A DNA stretch of 64,000 nucleotides. It comes from Ostreococcus lucimarinus (lineage: Eukaryota). Positions 22,909 through 53,729 of the stretch are shown here, piece by piece (positions within the stretch are counted from its first letter, which is position 1; each line of letters opens with the position of its first letter). The notes beneath the pieces are model-generated. The model was not told the DNA's origin, ran no database searches, and saw only the letters and a list, made by a program, of their open reading frames with translations. The translations under genes were made by a program, and so were the position numbers. The DNA lies in the NCBI GenBank assembly GCA_000092065.1, contig CP000595.1. One strand, written 5' to 3'.

Positions 22909-23335
22909 CGTCGCCGTCTCCTCGCGACGTCTCCCGCGTCGTCCCGCGCGTCGTCCCGCGCGTCGCCCCGCGCGTCACCGCGTCACCGCGTCACCGCGTC
23001 GCGCGTCGCGCCCTCAAGATAACGAATGCCCTCGCCGCCGCGTCCGCGCGCGTCGACGCGCGTCGACGCGCTCGCGCCGCGCGTCGCGCGTCGCGCGTCG
23101 CGACGCGCGTCGCGGTTCCGCGCGTCCGTCGCCGCGCGTCCGTCGACGGGCGCGCGTCGACGCGTTCTGGCGCGACGGGCGCGCCCAACCGTCGTCGTCG
23201 CACTCGGACGCGCGCGCGACGCGCCGACGACTCGACCCGCGCCGACGATGCGCGCGCGCTGACGACTCGACCCGCGCGACCGCGACCGCGACGACGCGCG
23301 ACGACGCGCGACGCGCGACCGCGACGACGACGCGA
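22909..23335. promoter_or_regulatory. Divergent (bidirectional) promoter region of GC-rich short tandem repeats between PHOT (-) and the ANK-RCC1-BTB gene (+)
   Basis: cgcgtcgtcccg x3, cgtcaccg x3, cgcgtcgacg x2 and similar repeats. No protein-like ORF. Confidence 0.4.
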
Positions 23336-31867: not shown

Positions 31868-32243
31868 CGCGGCGATCGGGCGACGCGCGGGGTCGTTTCG
31901 AGTCGACGCGCGTCGACGCGCGGCGGCGACGGCGCGGCGGCGGCGCGGCGGCGGCGCGGCGGCGCGCGCGCGGCGCGGCGACGACGCGCGGTCTCGCGCG
32001 TTCGCGCGTCGGCGTTCGCATCCTTAGCATTCGTAGCGTTTTCGTGTCCATCACGGACGACTTTAAAGATCGCGCTCGCGTCGTCGTCGCGTCGTCGTCG
32101 TCGTCCCGCTCGCCGCGCTCGGGACGCCTCGTCTGATCGACGTCACGCTCGCCGCCATCGCGTCATTCGCCGACGCGCGTGTGGACGAGCGTCCGACGCG
32201 CGCCTCGTCGAACGAACGCGCGAGAACGCGCGCGCTCGACGCG

Positions 32244-36172: not shown

Positions 36173-38044
36173 ATGGGCCGTCGAATCGACGCGAACGGTG
36201 GCGCGTCGAACGGTGAAGCCGACGCGTCGCGCGCGTCCCCTCGCGCGCGCGACGACGCGGTGTCGCGCCTCGACGCCGCGACGGTATCGCGCAGTGGGAC
36301 GCCGCCGCTCCCGCCGCTCGCGCCGTCGCAATACGAAGCGATGCTGCGCGCGCAGTACGCCGCGGGGGTGAGCCCGGGATCTGGGTTCGTCCCGGACGAC
36401 GCGCGAGCGTCGGATGAGGAGGACGGCGACGACGAAGGCGCGAGGCGGCGGTCGCGGGGACGAGCGAGCGGGACGGAGGAAGACGCGAAGACGAAGACGA
36501 GGGACGAAAACACCGCGGAGGGGCGCGCGGGGGGGCTGGTGAGGGATTTGATGGGAGGGTACGGCGACGACGCGCGCGGTACGGTGAGCTCGAGCGCGAC
36601 GGCGGGAGCAGAGGGTCGACGCGAGGCGAGCGCGGCGCGAGAGGCGGCGACGAGCGGATTGCAGACGGTGATGGTTGGTAAACCGCCGCGTGGGGTTGGA
36701 AACTACGATAAACCGAACGGCGACGATATCGAACCCGTCAAAGCGGTGCCGGTGTCGACGTCGGGGCGTGCCAAGGTGGGATGGGTGCGCATCAACACTC
36801 TGGGCGTTGTCAACCGGTTGTCGATGGAGAAGACAAAAATCGCGACTTTGCTCAGGGTACCGCTGCGGGATTTGCGCGTGCTCGAACCGACGACGGCAGA
36901 TTCGTACTCCGCCGCGGTACTGTGTCGTGAGCGCGCGATCGTGGTGAATTTGGAGCAGATTAAAGTGTTGATCACCGCCGAAGAAGTCATCATGACGGAT
37001 TCGCAAACGAGCACGGTGACGCACTTTTTGCCCGAGCTCCAAACCCGGTTGTTGCGACGAAAAAGACTGCGCGAGAGAGACCCATCGCTATCGACGCTAC
37101 CGCTGAATTTATCTGCCGCAGACTTGACGAATGTGATGGAAGGTCAAGCGGAGAAGGCGAAGAGCGAAACATCGCCCGAAAAAGAATTACGCCAGGCGCA
37201 GCCCACCACGGATGAGTTCCCGTTTGAATTCGTAGCCCTGGAAGTTGCGCTGGAGATGGTGTGTAACACCCTGGAGGTAGAGGCGAACAAAGTCGAGCTC
37301 GACGCCAAGCCCGCGCTCGAGGCGCTTCGTAAGCGGGTCGACAACGTCAACCTCGAACGCGTGCGAAGGATGAAGACGAGACTCGTGCGCGTCGCTGGTC
37401 GCGTGAGCAAGGTTCGAGAAGAGATTCAACGTTATTTAGACGATGATTCCGACATGCGTGACATGTATTTGACGCGTAAATCGAAACAACAGTCGGAATC
37501 ACTCAGAAGGGAGGGCTCCGTGACGTCGCCTCCGCCCAACGGCGCGGATGGCGGCCAACGAGGCGCGACGGCGCACTATCAGCTCGAGCACGCATTGAGT
37601 GCGTCGAGCGGACGATCTCCGCTCGGTGTGCACGGCGTGCACACACAAAGTGGCGAGGCACACAACGCATACTTCGACGCCTACGATGAAGACAAGGATC
37701 TACAAGAGCTCGAGGATTTACTCGAAACGTACTTTACCCACGTCGATTCCACCCACCGCTCGCTCAACGGTTTGAACGAGTACATCGATGACTTGGAGGA
37801 TTTGATCGAAATTGAACTCGATTCCCAGCGTAACCAGCTCATCAAACTCGAGCTCATCCTGACCACCGCGACGCTGTGCCTGACGTGCTTCTCCGTCGTC
37901 GTCGGCATCTTTGGCATGAACATCAAAAACAACGTCGAAAATGAGCATGGCATGTTTTTGTTGGTCGTCTTGCTCGGTTCAGCGGCGACGATCGGCATGT
38001 TCATCATCCTGTTGCGCGTGTGCCGATATTACAGGCTCTTCTAG
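36173..38044 (+). CDS. MRS2: MRS2/CorA-family magnesium transporter
   Basis: C-terminal GMN motif in two TM helices (GIFGMNIKNN). Coiled-coil stalk. Long Asp/Arg/Gly-rich N-terminal extension. ATG at 36173. Confidence 0.85.
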   Translation: MGRRIDANGGASNGEADASRASPRARDDAVSRLDAATVSRSGTPPLPPLAPSQYEAMLRAQYAAGVSPGSGFVPDDARASDEEDGDDEGARRRSRGRASGTEEDAKTKTRDENTAEGRAGGLVRDLMGGYGDDARGTVSSSATAGAEGRREASAAREAATSGLQTVMVGKPPRGVGNYDKPNGDDIEPVKAVPVSTSGRAKVGWVRINTLGVVNRLSMEKTKIATLLRVPLRDLRVLEPTTADSYSAAVLCRERAIVVNLEQIKVLITAEEVIMTDSQTSTVTHFLPELQTRLLRRKRLRERDPSLSTLPLNLSAADLTNVMEGQAEKAKSETSPEKELRQAQPTTDEFPFEFVALEVALEMVCNTLEVEANKVELDAKPALEALRKRVDNVNLERVRRMKTRLVRVAGRVSKVREEIQRYLDDDSDMRDMYLTRKSKQQSESLRREGSVTSPPPNGADGGQRGATAHYQLEHALSASSGRSPLGVHGVHTQSGEAHNAYFDAYDEDKDLQELEDLLETYFTHVDSTHRSLNGLNEYIDDLEDLIEIELDSQRNQLIKLELILTTATLCLTCFSVVVGIFGMNIKNNVENEHGMFLLVVLLGSAATIGMFIILLRVCRYYRLF

Positions 38045-38117
38045 CGACCGCCCTTTCTTGCAATTAAATCATCCAAACACCGGGAGCCGCTCGCGACGCC
38101 GCACTCCATGGTGTGGC

Positions 38118-38942
38118 ATGGCGCCGGTCGATTTCCGCGCCGTGCGCGCGAAAGCGTTGATGCGCGAGTCAACGACGACGACGACGACGACGACGCGCGA
38201 CGACACCCTTTCGTTCGCCGCGCGCGGTGGATTCGTCGACACAGATGTCGATGACGAGATTTCATCTTCATCGTCGCCCGACGTCGCGAAACGCGTCCCG
38301 GGGTTGGCGTATTGTCGTGAATTCATCGGTGCGCGCGACGCCGAGTTCGTCGAAAGCGCGTTACTGCGCGAGCCCGCGGCGTGGTGGACGAAAGGACGCG
38401 GTCGAAGGGTGATGAACGCGGGCGGGACGTCGCCTTCGAGGTTGTATCGCGAAGGCGATGACGAGGCGATTCCGACGTACCTGCGCGAACTCGTGGAGGT
38501 TTTGGTACGACGGAAAGCGAGCGAGCGCGCGGCGAATCACGTGCTGGTGAATGAATACGACGCTGATGGATTCATTTCGCCGCATTCAGATGGGGACGTG
38601 TACGCGCCCGATGTGCAAATTTTGACGCTACGGTCGAGCGCGTTGATTGAGTTTTGGCCGGCAGAGGGCGCGACGGCGGGAGACTTTGATGAGTGTGACA
38701 ATATCGATGCACCGCGGCCGGTCGTGAGCGTGTTGCTTGAACCTAGAAGCTTGTTGATGTACCGCGGCGAAGCGTATCGCTTACGTCACGGTATTCGCGC
38801 GCGAGTAAAAGACGTAGTGGCTGCAGAAACGGCGAACGCACGCGAATTAGGATTAGAAATAGGCGACGTCGTCGAACGTAATCCCGCGGGGCGGCTCAGC
38901 GTGGTGTTCGTGCGAAAGTACGCGGAGAGAAGATGTGAGTAA
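38118..38942 (+). CDS. AlkB-like 2OG-Fe(II) oxygenase (tentative)
   Basis: HVLVNEYDADGFISPHSDG (HxD facial triad) and a distal RHGI. The track ORF overlaps the MRS2 3' end; the start was moved to the MAPVDF ATG. Confidence 0.5.
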   Translation: MAPVDFRAVRAKALMRESTTTTTTTTRDDTLSFAARGGFVDTDVDDEISSSSSPDVAKRVPGLAYCREFIGARDAEFVESALLREPAAWWTKGRGRRVMNAGGTSPSRLYREGDDEAIPTYLRELVEVLVRRKASERAANHVLVNEYDADGFISPHSDGDVYAPDVQILTLRSSALIEFWPAEGATAGDFDECDNIDAPRPVVSVLLEPRSLLMYRGEAYRLRHGIRARVKDVVAAETANARELGLEIGDVVERNPAGRLSVVFVRKYAERRCE

Positions 38943-38988
38943 GAAACTAGTTAGGCGAGAGCGTCGAGAATCGGATCGAGTCGACGAG

Positions 38989-39669
38989 TCACCTCGTTTC
39001 GAATCGAAATCGTCTAGGGTCGTCGTCGTCGTCGTCGTCATCGGACGGGTGCCTCGATGTGCGTCGTCGAGCCGACTCGCGTAGCAGTCGCGCGCGCGCG
39101 AAGAACTCGTCGGCTTGATCTCTCTTCGCGTGCGCTCGTCTCGACATCTCTCGAGCGCGTTGGCGAAGACGGCGATGCGCCTTGGCAAACATCGCATCGG
39201 CGTCATGTTCGAGCTCTTCAGCCATTCGTCGCAGCTGTAACGCTCGACTTTCGAGATGCGCTGGCGATGCGTTCACGTCGTCGCCGCGCTCTTCCATTTC
39301 CATTTCCTCTACCATCATTTCACGAAAGAGACGTTGCATTCTCGCGTCGCGCTCGGCGACACTCTCATCGTCCAGCGCAGCGTCGTCTTCGATGTTCTCC
39401 GCCGACGAAAAGTCGTTCGTCGTAGTTTCGTTCTTCGTATCGCTCTTCGTAGTTTCACTCTTCGTGTCGTCGCTCGACGTCGAAGACGTGCGAGAGGACC
39501 ACAGGGCGCCCATCTTTGGATTTGGCTGCGCGCTCGCTCGTTGGGGCACCAAGAGCCACGGCAAGGATGGTTTCACAGGCGATGGCGACGACGGGAAGAG
39601 CGATTTTTTTGCGAGTGTTCGTAGCAGCGACGCACGCACGGCGATCGTGGATCGAGCGAGCACGAACAT
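38989..39669 (-). CDS. Hypothetical acidic coiled-coil protein
   Basis: ATG at 39669. Normal protein composition with a poly-Asp tail. Internal MGALWSS is a possible N-myristoylation start. No recognisable family. Confidence 0.35.
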   Translation of the reverse strand: MFVLARSTIAVRASLLRTLAKKSLFPSSPSPVKPSLPWLLVPQRASAQPNPKMGALWSSRTSSTSSDDTKSETTKSDTKNETTTNDFSSAENIEDDAALDDESVAERDARMQRLFREMMVEEMEMEERGDDVNASPAHLESRALQLRRMAEELEHDADAMFAKAHRRLRQRAREMSRRAHAKRDQADEFFARARLLRESARRRTSRHPSDDDDDDDDPRRFRFETR

Positions 39670-39758
39670 GTCGCGTCAGTGTGTGAAGATTTTGGACGAG
39701 ACGAGACCAGACGAGTCGACAATTTGGCGCACGCCCAATATCTACAATATCTACGATT

Positions 39759-41084
39759 TCACGCGCGTTTCTGACGCTTGAGTTGAGCGAGCGTGGGCAC
39801 AGCTCGCGCCATCGCGACACGCACGGATGTGGCGAACGTATCCTTCACACCCACGTCTCGCGCTGCTTTGGAAGATTGCAAGACGAAGACGCACGTGTCG
39901 TACGGCGACGCTCGATAGGGATCGCGCCGTTGATGCGAAGCGCCGTCGCAATATCCGTGGTCGACCGCGGCGATGAGTACGTTCGCTCGAAGAAACGCGC
40001 TGTTTGTGAGCGCATCGAACGCGCCCGTCTCTTTCCATCCCGGCATGATGAAGACAAACGTGAGCGCGTTTTGTGACTTCTCCGCGCGTTCGAGCAACGC
40101 CTCGCACCAGAGGGCGGCCTCGTCCAAGACCTCGCGCACGAAAGGTGGATTTACCTCGTACGACCCTCTCGACGGTTGAAACGCCGCGAACGAGCCGATG
40201 CTCCCGAACGGGGCGTCGACGTCGCCGAAAGCGCTGCAAAATCGCGCGAAGTACGCGTTCATGGGCGACGCGAAGCACTCCATCGTAACCTTCAGATCAT
40301 CGTGCAACACGCGGAAGACGTCGTGCGAGCACGCCGCTTGGAATCCATGGCCATGAATCGTTTTGTACCTAAGCAACAGCGCGAACATTCTGTCGTGCAC
40401 GTCGTCGTCACCGTCGTCGTCGCCGCCGGCGCGCGAGTGCTTTTCGTAAAGCGCGCGCAACTTGCCGTACGCCTCGTGCGTCAACTTGACCAAGTAATCG
40501 TCGCCAAGCGTCAAATCTCGCGAGTGTTTATGTATCGTCAATTTCGTCGCCGCGAGCTTGGCCAGACCGTGCGCGCCACCGTCCACCAGTTTCTGTTTCA
40601 TCGCCTCCAACGCGACGACCTCCTTCGCCGACGCCGCGCACACCGACGCCTCAATCTCGATGGCGATCGCCTCCGAGACCCCCGCGCGCATCAAATCGTT
40701 CGCCATCGTCCCTTTCGTCGCGCCGTCGTGCGCGACGTTCGGAAACATGGCGTCCGTGTTCTCCCCCACGAGGCCGCACGCGCCTCGTCTCCGCCGTTTC
40801 GTCTTTCCCTTTCCCGCCGCCGCCGCCGTTCGTCCCCGCGCCTCCTCCGCCAACTTCGTCGCGAACCTCCATCGCTCGAGCGCCAGCTGCGGCGGCGCTT
40901 CCAGTCCCCCCCTCCGTTCGCACGCCGCTCGAAACGCCTCTCGCACGCGTTTCATCGCCTCCGCGCGTCTCGCCTCGCAGTGCGCCGCCGCCCGCGCGCT
41001 CCGCGCCGTCGCCCGCGCGCACGCCGCGTCCACGCGCACGACCGCCGCGTCGTGTTCGACCGCGAAGTCGTACGATTGACCCAT
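39759..41084 (-). CDS. PCIF1/CAPAM-like (PCIF1_WW family) NPPF-motif RNA methyltransferase-domain protein
   Basis: ECFASPMNAYFARFCSAFGDVDAPFGSIGSF...GSYEVNPPF...FVFIMPGW aligns with the PCIF1 catalytic core including NPPF. Start at the MGQSY ATG (41084). The upstream track extension is a poly-Thr/Arg low-complexity tract encoded by (GTC)n. Confidence 0.6.
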   Translation of the reverse strand: MGQSYDFAVEHDAAVVRVDAACARATARSARAAAHCEARRAEAMKRVREAFRAACERRGGLEAPPQLALERWRFATKLAEEARGRTAAAAGKGKTKRRRRGACGLVGENTDAMFPNVAHDGATKGTMANDLMRAGVSEAIAIEIEASVCAASAKEVVALEAMKQKLVDGGAHGLAKLAATKLTIHKHSRDLTLGDDYLVKLTHEAYGKLRALYEKHSRAGGDDDGDDDVHDRMFALLLRYKTIHGHGFQAACSHDVFRVLHDDLKVTMECFASPMNAYFARFCSAFGDVDAPFGSIGSFAAFQPSRGSYEVNPPFVREVLDEAALWCEALLERAEKSQNALTFVFIMPGWKETGAFDALTNSAFLRANVLIAAVDHGYCDGASHQRRDPYRASPYDTCVFVLQSSKAARDVGVKDTFATSVRVAMARAVPTLAQLKRQKRA

Positions 41085-41090
41085 CGCGCG

Positions 41091-41305
41091 CGTCGTCGTC
41101 GTCGTCGTCGTCGCGCGTCGTCCCGCGTCGTCGTCCCGCGTCGTCGCCTTCGCCTTCGTCAGCGCGTGTAACGGTCCCGCCGTCCATCGTCGTCGCGGCG
41201 TCTTCGTCGTCGTCGTCCTCGTCGTCGCGCGCGGCGACGGCGTCTCTCGCGTCGTCGTCGTCGTCGTCGCTCGCGTCGTCGTCGGCGGCGGCTCTCGCGT
41301 CGTCA
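41091..41305. repeat. Interrupted (GTC/GAC)n trinucleotide tract
   Basis: (cgt)8 at 41091..41113 and further gtc runs at 41205..41305. They read as poly-Asp or poly-Thr depending on frame. Confidence 0.7.
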
Positions 41306-41485
41306 TGAAAGGTTCGCGCGACGACGCGTCGCGGCGCGCGGCGGTCGACGCGCGGCGGTCGCGCATCGTGGCGGTATACGGCGCATTTCGTGGCGGTGTA
41401 CGGCACACTCGATCGTATCGTAAGGCTCGTGGCCCCATATAGCGCGAAATGCGACGCCGCGCGCCCGCCCGCGCGTCTTTGGGTG

Positions 41486-41556
41486 CGATCGCGCGATCGA
41501 TCGATCGCGCGTCGCGAAACGCGATCGATCGATCGCGTTTCGCGCGCCGCGATCGA
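41486..41556. promoter_or_regulatory. Nested GATC-based palindromes in a divergent promoter: two copies of cgcgatcgatcgatcgcg embedded in a 32-nt perfect palindrome
   Basis: cgcgaaacgcgatcgatcgatcgcgtttcgcg at 41513..41544 is its own reverse complement. gcgcgatcgatcgatcgcgc at 41491..41510 is also palindromic. Confidence 0.6.
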
Positions 41557-41735
41557 CCGGTCAAAACCCTAGGCCCGCGAGGTCAATCGCCGCCCGGGCC
41601 CTCAATTGTCCCCACTCGTCGTCGTCGACGTCGTTCGACGCGATTCGATCGCGCCGCGAACGCGAGATCGACGACACCGACACCTTTCGCGTCGTTGAAC
41701 GCGCGCCTTGGCTCGATTCGCGCGTCGCGCGCGAC

Positions 41736-42635
41736 ATGAATGCCGACGAAATGATCGCCGACGGCGACGCGAACGGCGTCGACGTTCGCGCGCTCGACGA
41801 GGCGATGGCGATGGACGACGATCACGCGAGCGCGCGAAAGAGCGCGTCGTCCGCGCCCGCGAACGCGAACCCGCCGCTGCCGCCGAACGCGCGACCGCGG
41901 CACGAAGGGCGAGGCGGGGCGAACGGACACGGCGGCGAACGACGACGAGGCGGCGGCGAACGAGGCGGAGGACGAGGCGGTGGACGTTTTCAACAGCGAG
42001 AGCGCGCGCCGACGCGACCGGGGTGGTTCGCGACCGGGGAGGTGGACGAGCACAGCGGAAGGCCCGCGCACAGCGGACAGTGCGAGGGGTGCAGGGTGAG
42101 CACGGTTGTGAATTTCAGACCCGTGGTTGGCGGCAATCCACCGTTGTGCGGAGTGTGTTTGGATTCGTTGAAAGCCGCCACCGCGGGAGGATCGGTGGAC
42201 GGCGACAACGCGTCGGGCGGACCGAATCGTGGGCGACGAGGCGGGCGCAATGGGGCGATGATGATGATGGGGATGCCGCACCAAGGCGGGTTTCAGGGCG
42301 GCGCGAGGTTTTCGCCGTACGCCTCGGGCGGGCAGATGGTGATGATCGATCCACGGATGATGGCGGCGTACGGTGGAGGTCGTGGAGGCGGTATGATGGC
42401 GGCGTACGGCGCCGCCGGCGCGGGCGGCGGCGGTGGGCGCGGTAAGAACAGGACGTGGACGAGAGAAGGCGGAGACGCCGGCGCGGGGGTCGGCGGACAA
42501 GAAGACGTGGACACGTCGGGCATTCCGTGCATATTCTTCCAGCGCGGCGCGTGTCGCGCGGGGGATTCGTGTAAGTATTCCCATAGCGGTGAAGGCTCGG
42601 GCGCCGCGCCGGCGGAGATGAACGTTGAAATGTGA
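41736..42635 (+). CDS. CCCH-type zinc-finger, RGG/Gly-rich putative RNA-binding protein
   Basis: C-terminal C-x8-C-x5-C-x3-H (CIFFQRGACRAGDSCKYSH). RGG/GGR-rich middle region. ATG at 41736. Confidence 0.7.
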   Translation: MNADEMIADGDANGVDVRALDEAMAMDDDHASARKSASSAPANANPPLPPNARPRHEGRGGANGHGGERRRGGGERGGGRGGGRFQQRERAPTRPGWFATGEVDEHSGRPAHSGQCEGCRVSTVVNFRPVVGGNPPLCGVCLDSLKAATAGGSVDGDNASGGPNRGRRGGRNGAMMMMGMPHQGGFQGGARFSPYASGGQMVMIDPRMMAAYGGGRGGGMMAAYGAAGAGGGGGRGKNRTWTREGGDAGAGVGGQEDVDTSGIPCIFFQRGACRAGDSCKYSHSGEGSGAAPAEMNVEM

Positions 42636-42743
42636 GCGAAGGCGCCAAGTTTTGTAAATATACGTACGTCGGTCTGCGACTTCGAGCGCGGCGCGCGGCG
42701 TCGATTTCGCAAGCGTTCGCTTGTATTACACAAAAAAACTCCC

Positions 42744-42797
42744 CGAATTCATGACGCGGAGCGAATTCGTGACGCGAAGCGAATTCGTGACGCTTCG
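42744..42797. repeat. 18-bp x3 tandem repeat (gcgaattcgtgacgcgaa) with short inverted arms
   Basis: Lies in the 200-bp convergent 3' spacer between the CCCH gene and the amino-acid transporter gene. Confidence 0.6.
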
Positions 42798-42835
42798 CAT
42801 CGATCACACTCAAGAGATATCGTCACGTTCGCCCC

Positions 42836-44239
42836 TTAGAGGACGATAGAAAGCACGATGCACGTGACGCCCGTGACGAAGACGCCGCCGATTCTCGCGA
42901 GCTCGAGCGGGACGATTTCAGCCTTGACCTTCTTTTGCGTCAAGTACAGAATCATCGCCGGCAAGACGAGAGAGAGAATGGAGCAGCACACACCACCGAC
43001 GTAGCCGAGGACGACGCCAAAGTTCGGGACGTTAGCTGCGGTCCAAAGCGCGCCCGCGGTGAACGCGGTGCGCACGGCGAGCGCTTGCGGCGCGCCGATG
43101 GATCCCGGCTTGTCGCCTTCGAGCACGTTTTCGCAAATGCGGAGCGCGGATTGCGCCATGATCGGGTACGTGGACAGCAAGTTCAAGCACAACAACAGTT
43201 GCACCGCGATCCCCGACGGGCCCGTGAGCATGGTGACGACGACTGAGGAGACCCCCGTGCCGAAACCCGCGGCGCCGGCGACGCCAAAGAGCCCGGCGAT
43301 GACGGCGGCGCCCGTGAACGCCTTCACCGCGGCACCGAAGAACTTATCCGGTTGCGGCATCGCTTCCTTAATCCCGAACAGGGTGAAGTGAATGAAGAAC
43401 AAAAACGCCACGGTGCCGAAGAATCCCGGAAACGCCGCAAAGTTGGCCACCGGCAACGCGCCGAGTTGCAGCGGGTTGGACAGCGCCGTCGCCGTCGTCA
43501 CCGCCATGCCGACCGCGACCGACGCGGTGCCGACGGCGGAAATCACAGCCACGCCGCTCATCTCGCGCAACCACGACAGCGCGATCATGAGCGGCCCGAC
43601 GAGCGCGAGCATGCTCGCCGTCGTCGGCGACGCCCCGAACGCGCTCACCCCGAGCGCGGGCACCACCACCTTCATCGTCTCCGCGATGAAGATTAAATAG
43701 CTCACCGTGATCCCGAAGCACGTCAGCACGTTCATCACTCGGCACGCCGCGTCTCCCGCGCGTCCCATCGCCGCGTTCGTCAGCCCCGCGTACGTCGCCA
43801 CCTCGCTCGCCGTCGACGCTCCCGCGCCGACGAGCGCGTCCTGCGCCTTAATCAGCATTCGCAGCGCCTCGAGCGCGAACACCAGCGACGCCGCCATGCA
43901 CGTCCCCACGAGCGCGATCCCTCCCTGCGCGAACGCCCACGGCAGCGCGAACCCCCCCGCGCCGAAGATCGCCTTCACCGTGTTCACGATCGCCGCGTTT
44001 TCCCCGCTCGCGTCGCCCGCGGACGCGAAAGTTCGCGTCGCTCGCGCCTCGCGCGTCCCGCGTCCCGCGATCGTCGTCGCGTCGTCGCGACGCGCGCGTC
44101 CCGCGTCCAACGGGACGCGCGCGAAACCGCGTCGCGCGCGCGCGCGTCGCTCGATCGCGACGCCGCGTCGCGTCGGTCGCGCCGTCGCGCGTCCGGCGAC
44201 GCATCCGCGCGTCGCGCGCGTCGCCGTCGTCGTCGCCAT
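42836..44239 (-). CDS. Amino acid transporter (AAAP/SLC38-like, Aa_trans family)
   Basis: About 11 TM segments. N-terminal IVNTVKAIFGAGGFALPWAF typical of Aa_trans. Start at the MATTTA ATG (44239). The upstream track extension is an Arg/Ala artefact. Confidence 0.8.
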   Translation of the reverse strand: MATTTATRATRGCVAGRATARPTRRGVAIERRARARRGFARVPLDAGRARRDDATTIAGRGTREARATRTFASAGDASGENAAIVNTVKAIFGAGGFALPWAFAQGGIALVGTCMAASLVFALEALRMLIKAQDALVGAGASTASEVATYAGLTNAAMGRAGDAACRVMNVLTCFGITVSYLIFIAETMKVVVPALGVSAFGASPTTASMLALVGPLMIALSWLREMSGVAVISAVGTASVAVGMAVTTATALSNPLQLGALPVANFAAFPGFFGTVAFLFFIHFTLFGIKEAMPQPDKFFGAAVKAFTGAAVIAGLFGVAGAAGFGTGVSSVVVTMLTGPSGIAVQLLLCLNLLSTYPIMAQSALRICENVLEGDKPGSIGAPQALAVRTAFTAGALWTAANVPNFGVVLGYVGGVCCSILSLVLPAMILYLTQKKVKAEIVPLELARIGGVFVTGVTCIVLSIVL

Positions 44240-44509
44240 CGTCGTCGTCGTCGTCGTCCCGCGTCGCGCGCGCGTCGCGACGCCGCGGTGTGCGGACCGG
44301 GAGAGCGCGTCGTCGCGCACGCGGGTGTTTGCGTCCGGACCGGGAGAGCGCGTCGTCGCGGTCGTGTTCGCGCGACCGCGACGCCGCGCGCGACCGAAAC
44401 GAGACGTGCCGAACGGCGCGGCGACGCTCTTCGTCGCGACGACGCGCCGAAGTCGTGACGACGACGACGACGCGCCGACGCGACCGAGGCGAGACTTTCG
44501 GCGCGCGAC

Positions 44510-46039
44510 ATGAAGCGCGCGCGCGCGACGCGCGAGGACGGGCGCGGATTCGACGCGCGCGAGGCCATGCGCGCGTGGACGCGAGGCGCGCGGGAGACGA
44601 CGCGCGAGGCGACGCTGCGCGCGTTCCACGGCGGCGACGTGACGAAGATTCTGCGCGAGTGTCGAGACGGGAGTAACGAGGCGTACGACGACGACGACGT
44701 CGAGGCGGCGATGGAGGCGCTGACGCGAGACGGGACGACGATCAACGCGCCGTTTTGTTTCACGGCGGGCGCGATCGGGCTGAAACGCGCGCTGCATCTC
44801 GAGGCGTGGGCGCGGCTGCGCGGCGGCGAGTTTCGCGGACGCGACGGGGAGATTTTCGGCGTCGCGGGGGGGTGCGTCGGTTACGGCGAGTGCGAAGTCG
44901 GCGTGTACGCGTCGAGGGCGAACGGGGACATCGCGGAGTGGCATCGGGACGCGTGCGATAACGCCACGATTCAACTCGTCGGCAAAAAGCAGTGGGAGGT
45001 GGAGGTGTACCGCGACGCGCGCGACGGCGCGGAGCTCCGCGAGGAGCTTCGAGGCAAGTCGCGAAACGCGTCGGCGAGCGACGAGGCGACGTGCGGCGCG
45101 GATTACATCGAGCAAATTTGGACCGAGACGGAGATAGTGACGCGCGTCATCGGACCGGGGGAGACGATTTGCGTGCCGCGAGGGCGAATGCATCGCGTCG
45201 TGCCTTTGGGGGAAGGCGTGAGCGTCTCCGCGGACATTCGCATGACGACGATCGAAAGCGCCGAAATCGCGGCGGAGATCGCGTATCTCAAAGCGATCGC
45301 GCTCTACGACGAGCGAAGCGTCTCGAAACGTCCCGTCGAATTGCCTCCGATTCATTGGTTGCCGTTTGAAGAGGAATTTTCCGACGGTTTAGTGCTCGGC
45401 GCTCGATTGGAATACATCGTCGCCGCCGCGGCGAATCGTTCGGGGACGCACGACGACGCGACGACGTACGAACCGGTGCGGCGGACCGACGGCACGGAAA
45501 AGTTGGGGGTCAGCGCGCGCGCGGAAACGTTGCGGCGCTCCCCGACCGCCGTTTTACATCCGTCGTGCGCGTGCGCGGTGCGCGACGACGACGAGCGCGG
45601 GGATTATCACGTATTCAACGTCAAAGCCACGTCCGCGCTGACGAATAAAGATCTCATGAGCGAGTTCAACATTTACGTTCGACGCGATTCCGTGCGCGAG
45701 GGAGAAATGCGCGCCTTCAACAGCCCCGTCGACTTCATCGAAGCCGAACTAGGCCGATTGGAGCGACAATCGCCCGATCGCGGGAACGACCGCAGGCTCG
45801 TGGCGCGCGACTCGGGCGAGTTTTCCGACGCCGTCTCGTCGCTCAGGGGAGTTCTTTACGACGCGAACATTTTGCTGCCTCCGGGCAACGATTGGTGGTT
45901 CTTTTGGTGTAACACTTCGAAACGTTTGTCCGACGCGCACCCGTCGGGTCTCGCGCGACGCGACCGCTCGCCGGCCGCCGTTCGAATCCCCAGCATTCAA
46001 CAGTCGATCGGGCTCCGCGCGATCGCTTCGCAAAACTAG
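44510..46039 (+). CDS. JmjC/cupin-domain protein (2OG oxygenase-like)
   Basis: EWHRDACDNATIQLVGKKQWEV (HxD) and ICVPRGRMHRVVPLGEGVSVSADI (distal His). ATG at 44510. Confidence 0.6.
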   Translation: MKRARATREDGRGFDAREAMRAWTRGARETTREATLRAFHGGDVTKILRECRDGSNEAYDDDDVEAAMEALTRDGTTINAPFCFTAGAIGLKRALHLEAWARLRGGEFRGRDGEIFGVAGGCVGYGECEVGVYASRANGDIAEWHRDACDNATIQLVGKKQWEVEVYRDARDGAELREELRGKSRNASASDEATCGADYIEQIWTETEIVTRVIGPGETICVPRGRMHRVVPLGEGVSVSADIRMTTIESAEIAAEIAYLKAIALYDERSVSKRPVELPPIHWLPFEEEFSDGLVLGARLEYIVAAAANRSGTHDDATTYEPVRRTDGTEKLGVSARAETLRRSPTAVLHPSCACAVRDDDERGDYHVFNVKATSALTNKDLMSEFNIYVRRDSVREGEMRAFNSPVDFIEAELGRLERQSPDRGNDRRLVARDSGEFSDAVSSLRGVLYDANILLPPGNDWWFFWCNTSKRLSDAHPSGLARRDRSPAAVRIPSIQQSIGLRAIASQN

Positions 46040-52037: not shown

Positions 52038-53729
52038 TCACCAAAGTTTCGGTTTCGGCACGCCTCTTCGAGGCACGCTCGACAGGAATTCGTGCTGCAT
52101 GTCGCGAACCTTTTCGGCGCCGACGAGAGAGGCGCCGGCGAGACAGGTGGCGATGATGGCTGGCGCTTCTTGATCGAACGCTGCACCCGTGACGGCGAGG
52201 AACAACCCGCCGGCGAGCAAGTACTTGCTCGCGGCGACGCATCGCTCTTCGAGCACGCCGAGTTCGCTGAGCGCCGTCTTACACGCCACGCAGTGCTTGG
52301 TGTGACGATGGTACCGATCCAGCTGTTCGGCTTCGGATTTCACCTTCGACGCGTCGTCGACGACGCCCGGCGCCCACGCGACTTTGCCTCCGGCGTGCTT
52401 GTCCATCCAATTTCTAAACGCCGACACTCCAGCGTCGGCGGGCGTCGGCAAATAATACGATTGTTTCCACGGTTTGTTTTGAAGCTCCATCTCGACCTCA
52501 ACTCCGTGCATGGCTAAGATATCCTGGTCCCCCAAGTTGTACGCGCTCGATCCCGGCGGCGTGCCGTGCGACAGCCCTACGCGCACGAGCTTTGGGTCGC
52601 TCGTAAAGTTGTCGACGTAAAAGTCAAACAGCGACGTCGCGGGAGCGGTGACAAGGGAGTTGATGCGATCGGCGGGTGAAACCTTACGCGCGCCCGCGCC
52701 CTGCACCGCGCTCGCCTGGTGGGCTTGGAACTTTGTAAACATGAGCGTTCGTCCGGGCTCCGTCGGCGCGTAGAGAATCGCCGCCGAGAGGTACTTTTTA
52801 CCCTTGGCGTCCAAGTATTCGCTTCGACTCGAGCACGGCGCGGTGAACACGCGCGATGCCGATACGCCGACGTTCGACTTGTTGTATCCACCGTGCTCGA
52901 CCACGAATCCATCCTTTTGCATCGTCCCCTCGCGAACGCTGAACTCAGTCATGGCCACGAAACCCGCGTTCGCGCGCTCGTCGAGCTGTCCTTCGGCGTC
53001 GTACCTCGCGTGCAACCACTCCGCGTGAGACGGGTCAAACTGATTCTCGAGCGCCGGGGCGTAACCCACGGGAAGCTCCACCATGCCCCACTCCCCGGGA
53101 AGCGTGCCTTCTCGCGCCAGAGACGTCGCGCACGGCGCGCCCGCGCTGGCGAGAAGGCCATCCGCGCCCGCCGTCGGCCACACCCAGAGAATTCCGTCTT
53201 CGACGCGGCTCGGATAGCTCGTAGCGCAAGATCGCGGCGATGCGCACGCGGTCTTTTCCGCGGCTTCATCGACGGACATCGGGATGGACACGCACGAGCC
53301 GTCCTTGCCGTCAAACGCCCAGCCGTGGTACCGGCACGCCAGCGTGCCGTCTTTTTGAACGTATCCCAGGCTCAAAGGCGCACGTCTGTGCGGACAGCTA
53401 TCCTCCAACACTCGCCACTCCTTGCACGTCGGGTCGAGGTAGGCGACGAGCTTTTTACCGAGCACGCGCAGCTCGTTCGGTTCGTTGGCATCCAAAAAGC
53501 TCACCGGACGAAGGGGATACCACGCGCTGGACCAATCGAACGACTCCCCCGCCGCCGCCGGCGGCGCGTTCGTCTCCGCAGTCGCCGCCTCGGACGTCGC
53601 TTCGAGTCGCACCGCGCTTCGGTGTCGTCGAACCGTCGCGGACCGAGTCGTCCTCTTATCCATCTTCCGCGGCGTCCCTCGCGCCGCGCCCCTCGCGATC
53701 GCGCTCGACATCGCCGTCGCCGCCGTCAT
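52038..53729 (-). CDS. Rieske [2Fe-2S] non-heme-iron oxygenase of the PAO/TIC55/PTC52/CAO family, plastid-targeted
   Basis: Rieske CxH...CxxH (CPHRRAPLSLG...CRYHGWAF). Mononuclear-iron region. C-terminal CxxC (HTKHCVACK) characteristic of PAO/TIC55/PTC52. Transit-peptide-like N-terminus. ATG at 53729. Confidence 0.85.
   Translation of the reverse strand: MTAATAMSSAIARGAARGTPRKMDKRTTRSATVRRHRSAVRLEATSEAATAETNAPPAAAGESFDWSSAWYPLRPVSFLDANEPNELRVLGKKLVAYLDPTCKEWRVLEDSCPHRRAPLSLGYVQKDGTLACRYHGWAFDGKDGSCVSIPMSVDEAAEKTACASPRSCATSYPSRVEDGILWVWPTAGADGLLASAGAPCATSLAREGTLPGEWGMVELPVGYAPALENQFDPSHAEWLHARYDAEGQLDERANAGFVAMTEFSVREGTMQKDGFVVEHGGYNKSNVGVSASRVFTAPCSSRSEYLDAKGKKYLSAAILYAPTEPGRTLMFTKFQAHQASAVQGAGARKVSPADRINSLVTAPATSLFDFYVDNFTSDPKLVRVGLSHGTPPGSSAYNLGDQDILAMHGVEVEMELQNKPWKQSYYLPTPADAGVSAFRNWMDKHAGGKVAWAPGVVDDASKVKSEAEQLDRYHRHTKHCVACKTALSELGVLEERCVAASKYLLAGGLFLAVTGAAFDQEAPAIIATCLAGASLVGAEKVRDMQHEFLSSVPRRGVPKPKLW

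Follow-up and report, generated by a model that had tools for sequence, protein, structure and literature searches.

Why should a run of nested perfect palindromes, built from GATC units, stand between two genes, and is its symmetry maintained by selection or simply generated by mutation? The tract in question begins at position 41486 of the window, by which we mean the whole 64-kb stretch of DNA that was analysed; exact protein matches identify it as part of a 468-kb chromosome of Ostreococcus lucimarinus CCE9901. The earlier note on this DNA had placed the element between a PCIF1-like gene (minus strand) and a CCCH zinc-finger gene (plus strand). We confirm that placement and the divergent orientation of the two genes; the centre of the largest, imperfect palindrome (41528/9) lies 8 nt off the midpoint of the 429-nt region that separates them. 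The features of the region are as follows.

39759..41306, minus strand: PCIF1_WW-domain gene, 515 aa (ATG at 41306; PF12237, E = 9e-60)
41442-41449: GCGCGAAA, presumed match to the E2F consensus
41486-41499: CGATCGCGCGATCG, 14-nt perfect palindrome containing GCGATCGC; left fringe of the tract
41490-41511: CGCGCGATCGATCGATCGCGCG, 22-nt perfect palindrome holding copy 1 of the 18-mer
41492-41509: 18-mer CGCGATCGATCGATCGCG, copy 1, inside the 22-nt palindrome
41495-41562: 68-nt imperfect palindrome spanning all three copies (arms 41495-41528 and 41529-41562, 85% complementary)
41510-41519: spacer 1, CGTCGCGAAA, polymorphic at 41517-41518
41513-41544: CGCGAAACGCGATCGATCGATCGCGTTTCGCG, 32-nt perfect palindrome centred on copy 2, the longest in the 64-kb window
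41520-41537: 18-mer CGCGATCGATCGATCGCG, copy 2, built on (GATC)3
41538-41545: E2F-like word TTTCGCGC, within spacer 2
41538-41547, plus strand: spacer 2, TTTCGCGCGC, approximately the reverse complement of spacer 1
41548-41562: CGCGATCGACCGGTC, degenerate third copy, 28-nt period kept
41591..41735, plus strand: proximal 145 nt 5' of the CCCH ATG, near-invariant across haplotypes (1.4% variable sites against 5-6% farther upstream)
41736..42635, plus strand: CCCH zinc-finger gene, 299 aa, XP_001421668 (ATG at 41736; zf-CCCH)

The two copies of the 18-nt palindrome are 28 nt apart from start to start, with a 10-nt spacer between them, and the second is nested in the 32-nt perfect palindrome, both as previously described. 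That description had passed over the 22-nt and 14-nt palindromes, the third copy and the 68-nt imperfect palindrome. Given that the spacers flanking copy 2 are inverted rather than direct with respect to each other, the architecture is palindromic and is not that of a simple tandem duplication.

Symmetry of this extent is improbable by chance, as the earlier note had supposed. Not one of 200 dinucleotide-preserving shuffles of the window contained a perfect palindrome of 32 nt, and a length of 30 was reached once. The exact 14-mer CGATCGATCGATCG occurs at two sites in 64 kb, both of them in the tract, while GATCGATC occurs outside the tract four times (about five are expected for the whole window) and always within long open reading frames, so that GATC multimers are indeed atypical of the surroundings. 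Part of the palindromy is nevertheless automatic, because (GATC)n and (CG)n units are self-complementary, a composition resembling that of a microsatellite. As single-stranded DNA, 41480-41570 is predicted to fold with -40 kcal/mol, against -28.2 +/- 2.3 for shuffled sequences (z = -5.2); together with the 85% complementarity of its arms, this makes the tract an imperfect inverted repeat capable of fold-back. Thus, of the earlier suggestion of a cruciform-forming element, the strong potential to form a hairpin or cruciform stands, but a functional cruciform is unsupported. A search of the tract against Rfam at a permissive threshold returned generic hairpins only, at no more than 27 bits against gathering scores of at least 83, and we reject a structured RNA since all matches fall below threshold.

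Variation within the species is informative about whether the tract is needed. The 299-aa CCCH protein is unchanged on hundreds of marine metagenomic contigs. Two anchors flanking the region served to compare 15 metagenomic contigs with the reference; all contigs compared encode an identical CCCH protein, and they fall into the following arrangements.

Haplotype A, reference and 7 contigs: tract present
Haplotype B, 2 contigs (L003/L136/L145; L143/L150): lacks 41457-41562 (106 nt)
Haplotype C, at least 2 (L153, L140): a segment of about 2.15 kb abuts the right edge of the tract and parts it from CCCH; it carries a 513-aa ammonium-transporter gene (PF00909)
Haplotype D, L142: DNA-methylase gene upstream; may be an assembly chimera
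Haplotype E, 1 contig: 41350-41556 replaced by about 45 nt of unrelated CG-rich sequence; PCIF1 start codon lost too
Scaffold L004/L137/L146: run of N at the tract

The JGI contig L130 terminates within the tract. Assembly breaks of this kind (the N gap, the end of L130 and the 9 of 23 other 18-mer loci that lie at contig ends) are what a repetitive palindrome should give. Natural haplotypes can do without the tract. Among haplotype A sequences it carries three independent variants (41505 T->G, 41517-8 AA/CG and 41552 A->C), each of which disrupts a pairing and none of which is compensated; the first (L138/L147) breaks the 22-nt palindrome. Across six tract-bearing haplotypes 4 of 77 sites in the tract are variable (5.2%), compared with 6.0% in the adjacent distal intergenic DNA, 4.1% in another divergent intergenic region nearby, 1.4% in the proximal CCCH promoter and 0.1-0.5% in coding sequence. 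Diversity in the tract is therefore at the intergenic level and far above that of the proximal CCCH promoter, which is how unconstrained DNA evolves. The real CCCH promoter and 5' untranslated region are probably the invariant proximal segment, 41591..41735.

The haplotypes also bear on how the two genes came to be neighbours. Window positions 41300-41556 align with L153:7412-7670, and 41578-41740 with L153:9843-10005, and homology to the haplotype carrying the ammonium transporter stops at 41556/41557. Beyond that boundary lies one further piece:

41557..41573, plus strand: 11-nt island CCGGTCAAAAC, followed by CCTAGG; the island matches L153:9637-9647, in the interior of the transporter segment

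Haplotype E lengthens the island match to 25 nt (E = 4e-5). On the simplest reading of these alignments, the arrangement with the transporter came first and haplotypes A, B and E arose from it by deletion, the deletion in haplotype A having one end within the third GATC copy. On that same reading the tract was PCIF1/ammonium-transporter intergenic DNA before it became PCIF1/CCCH intergenic DNA. As for the term 'divergent promoter' used for it earlier, the tract does lie between divergent genes, but the reference arrangement appears to be a recent fusion, given that in another haplotype the transporter gene intervenes between the tract and the CCCH gene. No close named homologue of the transporter was found among Ostreococcus reference proteomes, and it thus behaves as an accessory gene. 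Rearrangement junctions concentrate at the right edge of the tract, 41556-41568, although this clustering could merely mark the edge of the constrained CCCH promoter. One of the junctions, CAAAAC|CCTAGG, creates the telo-box-like word AAACCCTA (41565-41572). Telo-box or telomere-like words were seen in the window and in L013, and near the 18-mer at none of 28 other algal loci; we reject an association with telo-boxes as a rule, given this absence and the origin of AAACCCTA as a deletion-junction product.

Where the tract is present, spacer 1 exists in an allelic series that determines which perfect palindrome is seen. In haplotype C (L153) the spacer is CGTCGCGCGACG, which is self-complementary and yields a 48-nt perfect palindrome centred on the spacer, known from one metagenomic contig. 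In L135 and L152 it is CGTCGCGCGA, 2 nt shorter than CGTCGCGCGACG, and the longest palindrome is at most 22 nt. In the reference and 5 contigs it is CGTCGCGAAA, which gives the 32-nt palindrome with copy 2 at its centre; 6 of 9 element-bearing haplotypes have it. Positions 41517-41518 read AA in the reference and CG in L135/L152/L153. A change from CG to AA hits exactly both left-arm mismatches to the TTT of the opposite arm, and the perfect palindrome, 20 nt long with GCGCGA, measures 32 nt with the AA allele (GCGAAA). If the change ran in that direction, it is a clustered multi-nucleotide change raising arm identity, and such adjacent repair of a quasi-palindrome would be the signature of template-switch mutation. 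The series also bears the marks of a microsatellite, namely tandem units with polymorphism of length and copy number: (GATC)3 occurs twice alongside partial copies, spacer length differs among haplotypes by one CG unit, and haplotype C has 10 GATC copies against 8.

To compare species we used the CCCH gene as the anchor, because relatives of PCIF1 lie in non-syntenic contexts: the nearest of them (at most 60% identity) are non-syntenic and lack the tract. CCCH homologues (60-66% identity) led to orthologous loci in three other Ostreococcus lineages (L010, L011 and L013), at which genes for an AlkB-like 2OG oxygenase, CCCH, an amino-acid transporter and JmjC lie in the same order. The tract is missing from the syntenic CCCH-upstream region of all three. 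The corresponding site holds a telo-box-like word only in L010, one CGATCG in L011, and GGTCGATCGATCGAGG beside a CG run, plus three TTTAGGG repeats, in L013. The sister lineage L154 has an ammonium transporter 94% identical in protein sequence; there one CGATCG and a degenerate GCTATCTATCGACG occupy the positions of the reference's two (GATC)3 blocks, and GTCGCGTTTCGCGCG beside copy 2 is kept. Given that the tract is absent or rudimentary in these four lineages, the double (GATC)3 array is a recent expansion; the lack of conservation at orthologous sites is likewise the behaviour of a microsatellite.

A scan of metagenome contigs for the 18-mer returned at least 120 stretches. Among the 120 matches listed we kept as alga-like the 46 that are GC-rich with a CpG observed/expected ratio of at least 1.5, a combination which we take to be a signature of the Mamiellales; the other 74 of the 120, with a ratio below 1.5, were left out as unrelated, being mostly soil or bacterial-type contigs. 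The alga-like contigs carry eukaryotic genes (GATA, HMG, HORMA, Prp19, NOP9, SDA1 and others) and place the 18-mer at no fewer than 23-28 distinct loci among the matches listed. At the alga-like loci listed a local cluster of its own units always surrounds it: up to 170 nt away, and compared with the rest of the same contigs, GATCGATC is 33-fold denser, TCGATCGA 25-fold and CGATCG 7-fold. Local clustering of this type is what local repeat expansion yields. The longest stretch that any other locus among those listed shares with the window tract is 22-28 nt.

The earlier note had named common and random placement as the observation that would undo its case, and random placement is not what we see. 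On alga-like contigs the 18-mer is intergenic, mostly 5' of genes, in 65% of cases compared with 22% of random positions; it lies between divergent genes in 22% against 4%, and deep in coding sequence in 13% against 59%, these location classes being approximate in that the GC3-based gene calls are crude and missed several of the window's own genes at the first threshold. The genes beside other copies (mitochondrial carrier, NDH2, NOP9, GATA, HMG, SRP54, HORMA, Prp19, GH31 and others) are heterogeneous. Pfam annotation of 20 of them revealed no shared function, and we reject a common regulon.

Positional bias is not accompanied by enrichment of the core words. We counted these in 357 kb of unbiased alga-like sequence against the dinucleotide expectation. 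Upstream of genes CGATCG is found 93 times against 88 expected and GATCGATC 5 against 4.3; RGATCY shows no enrichment upstream beyond composition. GATC itself is under-represented, both upstream (168 against 217) and in coding sequence (1212 against 1438), and no (GATC)3 occurs in the 28.6 kb upstream of genes or in the 235 kb of coding DNA. TCGATCGA is modestly high upstream (13 against 6.2), TTTCGCGC is below expectation (7 against 12.6), and ATCGAT (25 against 17.8) is not significantly enriched; ApT contexts of the VATB type are not enriched either (820 against 870). CG-type simple repeats are abundant upstream, with (CG)4 at 243 against 112 and (GACC)2 at 34 against 2.6. The genome pattern fits sporadic local repeat expansion in scarce non-coding DNA, and not a widely used binding motif. 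In the literature on Ostreococcus and Micromonas, the motif turned up in primers and Hi-C ligation-site strings only.

Our preferred reading of this set of results, which we hold with moderate confidence, is that the tract is a self-complementary microsatellite quasi-palindrome, prone to form hairpins and shaped by slippage and template switching. It starts from what the comparisons established: the anatomy of the tract, its lack of conservation, the allelic series within the species and the distribution across the family. Short self-complementary runs of (GATC)n and (CG)n would expand locally in unconstrained 5' intergenic DNA; slippage of repeat units would then gain or lose copies and shift the palindromes, while intra-strand template switching would 'correct' an imperfect inverted repeat into a perfect one, and the same fold-back structure probably favours deletions. 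The nested perfect palindromes would be products of this mutational mechanism and not of selection, and what seems to count about hairpin potential is its effect on mutation, not a function under selection. The tract itself would hold no sequence-specific regulatory information, and would contribute at most the generic properties of a CpG-rich, probably nucleosome-poor intergenic region. Some observations count against this reading. The presence of 48-nt and 32-nt palindromes in two haplotypes would be expected under selection for palindromy as well, the bias of the 18-mer to 5' intergenic and divergent positions is also expected of a promoter element, and L154 has kept the word GTCGCGTTTCGCGCG that adjoins copy 2.

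Quasi-palindromes are known hotspots of template-switch mutation in E. coli, yeast and great apes (PMC7202029, PMC3820800, PMC8604942, PMC7954356). The tract resembles these in that an imperfect inverted repeat would have been made perfect by a clustered change (CG->AA at 41517-41518), and in being hairpin-prone and associated with insertions and deletions. It differs in that we infer the mechanism from the natural haplotypes of a green alga, and in that the arms lie on a self-complementary tetranucleotide microsatellite, so that slippage and template switching would act together and the centre of symmetry can jump between registers (48 or 32 nt). With promoter micro- and minisatellites the tract shares short tandem units ((GATC)3, (CG)n and the 28-nt period), local clusters, fast turnover, length polymorphism and assembly breaks, but its copy number is low and its higher-order layout is inverted, not head-to-tail. 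HIP1, the highly iterated palindrome GCGATCGC of cyanobacteria, is a single octamer over-represented genome-wide. Here too GCGATCGC is present, at 41485-41492, and CGATCG cores are plentiful in the tract; the host, however, is a eukaryote, CGATCG is at its compositional expectation outside such tracts, and GCGATCGC is not over-represented, at 0.30 per kb away from them.

The functional readings offered earlier (a dimeric transcription-factor site, a functional cruciform, or a replication or nucleosome signal) are unsupported, considering that the tract lacks conservation, that wild haplotypes have deleted or replaced it, that its diversity is neutral-like and that its cores are not enriched. 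Each has something in its favour nonetheless. We consider it unlikely, though still worth weighing, that the tract is a homotypic cluster of sites on a bidirectional promoter, for which candidate factors would be of the GATA type, dimeric (on CGATCG or TCGATCGA) or E2F (on TTTCGCGC). Plant GATA factors bind GATC cores (PMC9102942; SlGATA6 DAP-seq motif, PMC11922032), and repeated GATC cores in a promoter of the green lineage resemble such sites. GATA proteins are encoded on alga-like contigs (L016), the tract is midway between two divergent genes, the 18-mer favours 5' intergenic and divergent positions, and TCGATCGA is the one core in modest excess upstream. The flanks here are CGATCG, however, and not the contexts reported for the plant sites, with neither enrichment nor conservation of the core.

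The Drosophila DRE, TATCGATA, is bound by DREF, E2F sites have the form TTTSSCGC, and in other organisms the two are characteristic of bidirectional promoters linked to proliferation. Here there are ATCGAT cores within (GATC)3 and TTTCGCGC beside copy 2 (41538-41545), which, like GCGCGAAA (41442-41449), we take to match the E2F consensus and which is kept in L154. Unlike in such promoters, neither ATCGAT nor TTTCGCGC is significantly enriched upstream. E2F is therefore unsupported as a general explanation, TTTCGCGC being rarer upstream than expected, even though the word beside copy 2 is kept. Against a factor cluster of any kind stand the upstream counts of CGATCG, GATCGATC and RGATCY, the depletion of GATC, the uncompensated variants, diversity at the neutral level and the unrelated functions of genes at 20 other loci. 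The purifying selection expected of a cis-regulatory element is also not seen: the tract is 5.2% variable, is absent from three other species, and is lost from haplotypes B and E, with deletion found in wild haplotypes that retain both genes.

A platform for chromatin or methylation, on which the tract would serve as a maximally dense substrate for linker-DNA 5mC and 6mA or as a nucleosome-excluding spacer between two promoters, is in our estimation rather improbable. The composition fits, in that no base pair of (CGAT)n lies outside a symmetric CpG or ApT. In Micromonas and Ostreococcus both marks occupy linker DNA, 6mA at ApT in the first linkers that follow an active transcription start site and 5mC along the gene body (PMC12695648). 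The tract lies in 5' intergenic DNA, and upstream regions in general are CpG-rich simple sequence. Yet perfect palindromes are not needed for such a role, natural haplotypes do without the tract, and ApT in VATB-type contexts is not in excess upstream.

A bolder proposal would make tracts of (CGAT)n and (CG)n a class of bidirectional-promoter element found throughout the Mamiellales, in which symmetry is selected and is read by the 5mC/6mA systems or by a dimeric factor, marking a nucleosome-free region between divergent genes. To this we give a low probability. If true, it would explain why two haplotypes restore a palindrome in different registers, and why the 18-mer concentrates between divergent genes.

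It is very unlikely that selection for palindromy has kept the tract as a functional cruciform, such as a replication origin or recombination signal. Strong fold-back potential, long perfect palindromes in two haplotypes in different registers, and the junctions clustered at 41556-41568 would all suit such an element. Natural variants break the symmetry uncompensated, however, the tract is absent from other species and from some haplotypes, and the clustering of junctions is explained equally well by a constrained CCCH promoter boundary or by the fragility of a palindrome without function. Palindrome-mediated fragile sites are known in the form of the human PATRRs and of long inverted repeats in yeast; the deletion (41457-41562) and the junctions (41556/7 and 41567/8) at or beside the tract recall these, although arms of at most 34 nt are far shorter than the classical ones. 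Finally, that a MITE or transposon footprint inserted in the promoter explains the 106-nt presence or absence is barely credible, despite the clean indel between haplotypes and the recurrence of the 18-mer at many loci, as the 106 nt have neither terminal inverted repeats nor a target-site duplication at 41457/41562, and as other loci share 22-28 nt around the 18-mer (the 18-mer and CG-rich flanks only) and none shares the non-palindromic part of the segment.

As a regulatory element, then, the tract is of little weight: the evidence points to dispensable simple sequence. It does carry two warnings, namely that perfect palindromes in the promoters of CpG-rich picoalgal genomes are not necessarily binding sites, and that such palindromes break metagenome assemblies. 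Its interest lies in the wild haplotype series, which on the preferred reading, that of a quasi-palindromic microsatellite, is a natural example of long perfect palindromes arising, changing register and disappearing through slippage and hairpin-templated mutation, in a eukaryote whose genome is very compact. In these haplotypes such tracts also coincide with deletions, one of which would have removed an entire ammonium-transporter gene, and the polymorphism of this accessory transporter beside the tract is instructive in its own right.

GATC palindromic tracts are frequent gap or end points of metagenome assemblies. One scaffold (L004/L137/L146) carries a run of N at the tract that lies between the PCIF1 and CCCH zinc-finger genes, L130 ends inside that tract (L130:1-47), and breaks are also found at 9 of the 23 other algal loci among the matches listed. 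Assembled data therefore probably give too low a figure for how common such tracts are. In our unbiased set of 357 kb, made up of the window and 32 alga-like loci, the tetramer GATC is rarer than dinucleotide frequencies predict: 168 occurrences upstream of genes where 217 are expected, and 1212 in coding DNA where 1438 are expected. By the same measure (GACC)n/(GGTC)n lies far above expectation upstream, with 34 occurrences observed and 2.6 expected.

Among the matches listed, the 18-nt (GATC)3 palindrome of the tract also forms the core of a conserved repeat of 50-120 nt in contigs of low GC content (41-43%), at the following sites:
L018:474-593
L040:263-395
L076:2523-2575
L090:1008-1064 and 1210-1260
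L095:2004-2063
Since the repeat adjoins telomere-like (AACCCTA)n arrays in L076 and L095, it may belong to the subtelomeres of some other organism.

The window holds further perfect palindromes. Two clusters, at 23047-23114 and 31902-31922, are CG/TCGA-based and comprise the 24-nt GCGCGTCGACGCGCGTCGACGCGC, the 18-nt CGCGCGTCGCGACGCGCG and the 16-nt CGCGCGTCGACGCGCG; the former is intergenic, with a protein-kinase gene (-) on one side and, in divergent orientation, the next gene on the + strand on the other. Another perfect palindrome, GCGAGCAAGTACTTGCTCGC (20 nt, 52213-52232), is unremarkable in base composition and falls within an ORF (52038-53729, -) whose product is a Rieske-domain protein.

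Around the PCIF1 gene of the reference (window 37941-45636), several genes whose domains modify nucleic acids or chromatin lie together, namely an AlkB-like 2OG oxygenase, PCIF1 and JmjC. PCIF1 is missing from the syntenic locus of one other Ostreococcus lineage (L010:2126-3000), and haplotype E carries a mutation in the start codon annotated for it (L151:9725-9735). In the distal part of the PCIF1/CCCH intergenic region, a 20-nt unit, TCGTGGCGGTATACGGCGCA, is present twice, 22 nt apart (window 41366-41407), in copies that are 90% identical and contain several polymorphic sites. Directly 3' of CCTAGG, window 41572-41577 is a hypervariable patch with at least five alleles in eight haplotypes; over 41563-41590, 21% of sites are variable.

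Some wild O. lucimarinus-like genomes carry an ammonium-transporter gene between PCIF1 and CCCH that the reference is without:
L153:7671-9832, inserted segment, corresponding to window 41556-41568
L153:7869-9410, ammonium-transporter gene, 513 aa, PF00909
No close named Ostreococcus homologue of the transporter was found, and its best-matching cluster, 94% identical, has members from ENA metagenomes only. A different arrangement is seen in the single contig L142, where CCCH is preceded by a gene for a DNA methylase (PF00145) and by a short ORF resembling PIGBOS1 (1-1063). It has only a 167-nt segment in common with the ammonium-transporter haplotype (L140:891-1057; 99.4% identical), after which the two diverge; L142 represents either one more structural variant or an assembly chimera joined at a repeat.

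Several Ostreococcus lineages have telo-box or telomere-like words upstream of CCCH:
window 41565-41572, AAACCCTA
L013:697-722, (TTTAGGG)3
L010:2901-2909, AAACCCTAA
In the unbiased set AAACCCTA is upstream-specific (three observed upstream against 0.1 expected, and none in 235 kb of coding DNA); despite this specificity, its copy in the reference arises from a deletion junction. Analysis of the junction sequences suggests that the reference arrangement is itself the product of a deletion, one that possibly happened twice, in haplotype A (the reference and seven contigs) and in haplotype E.
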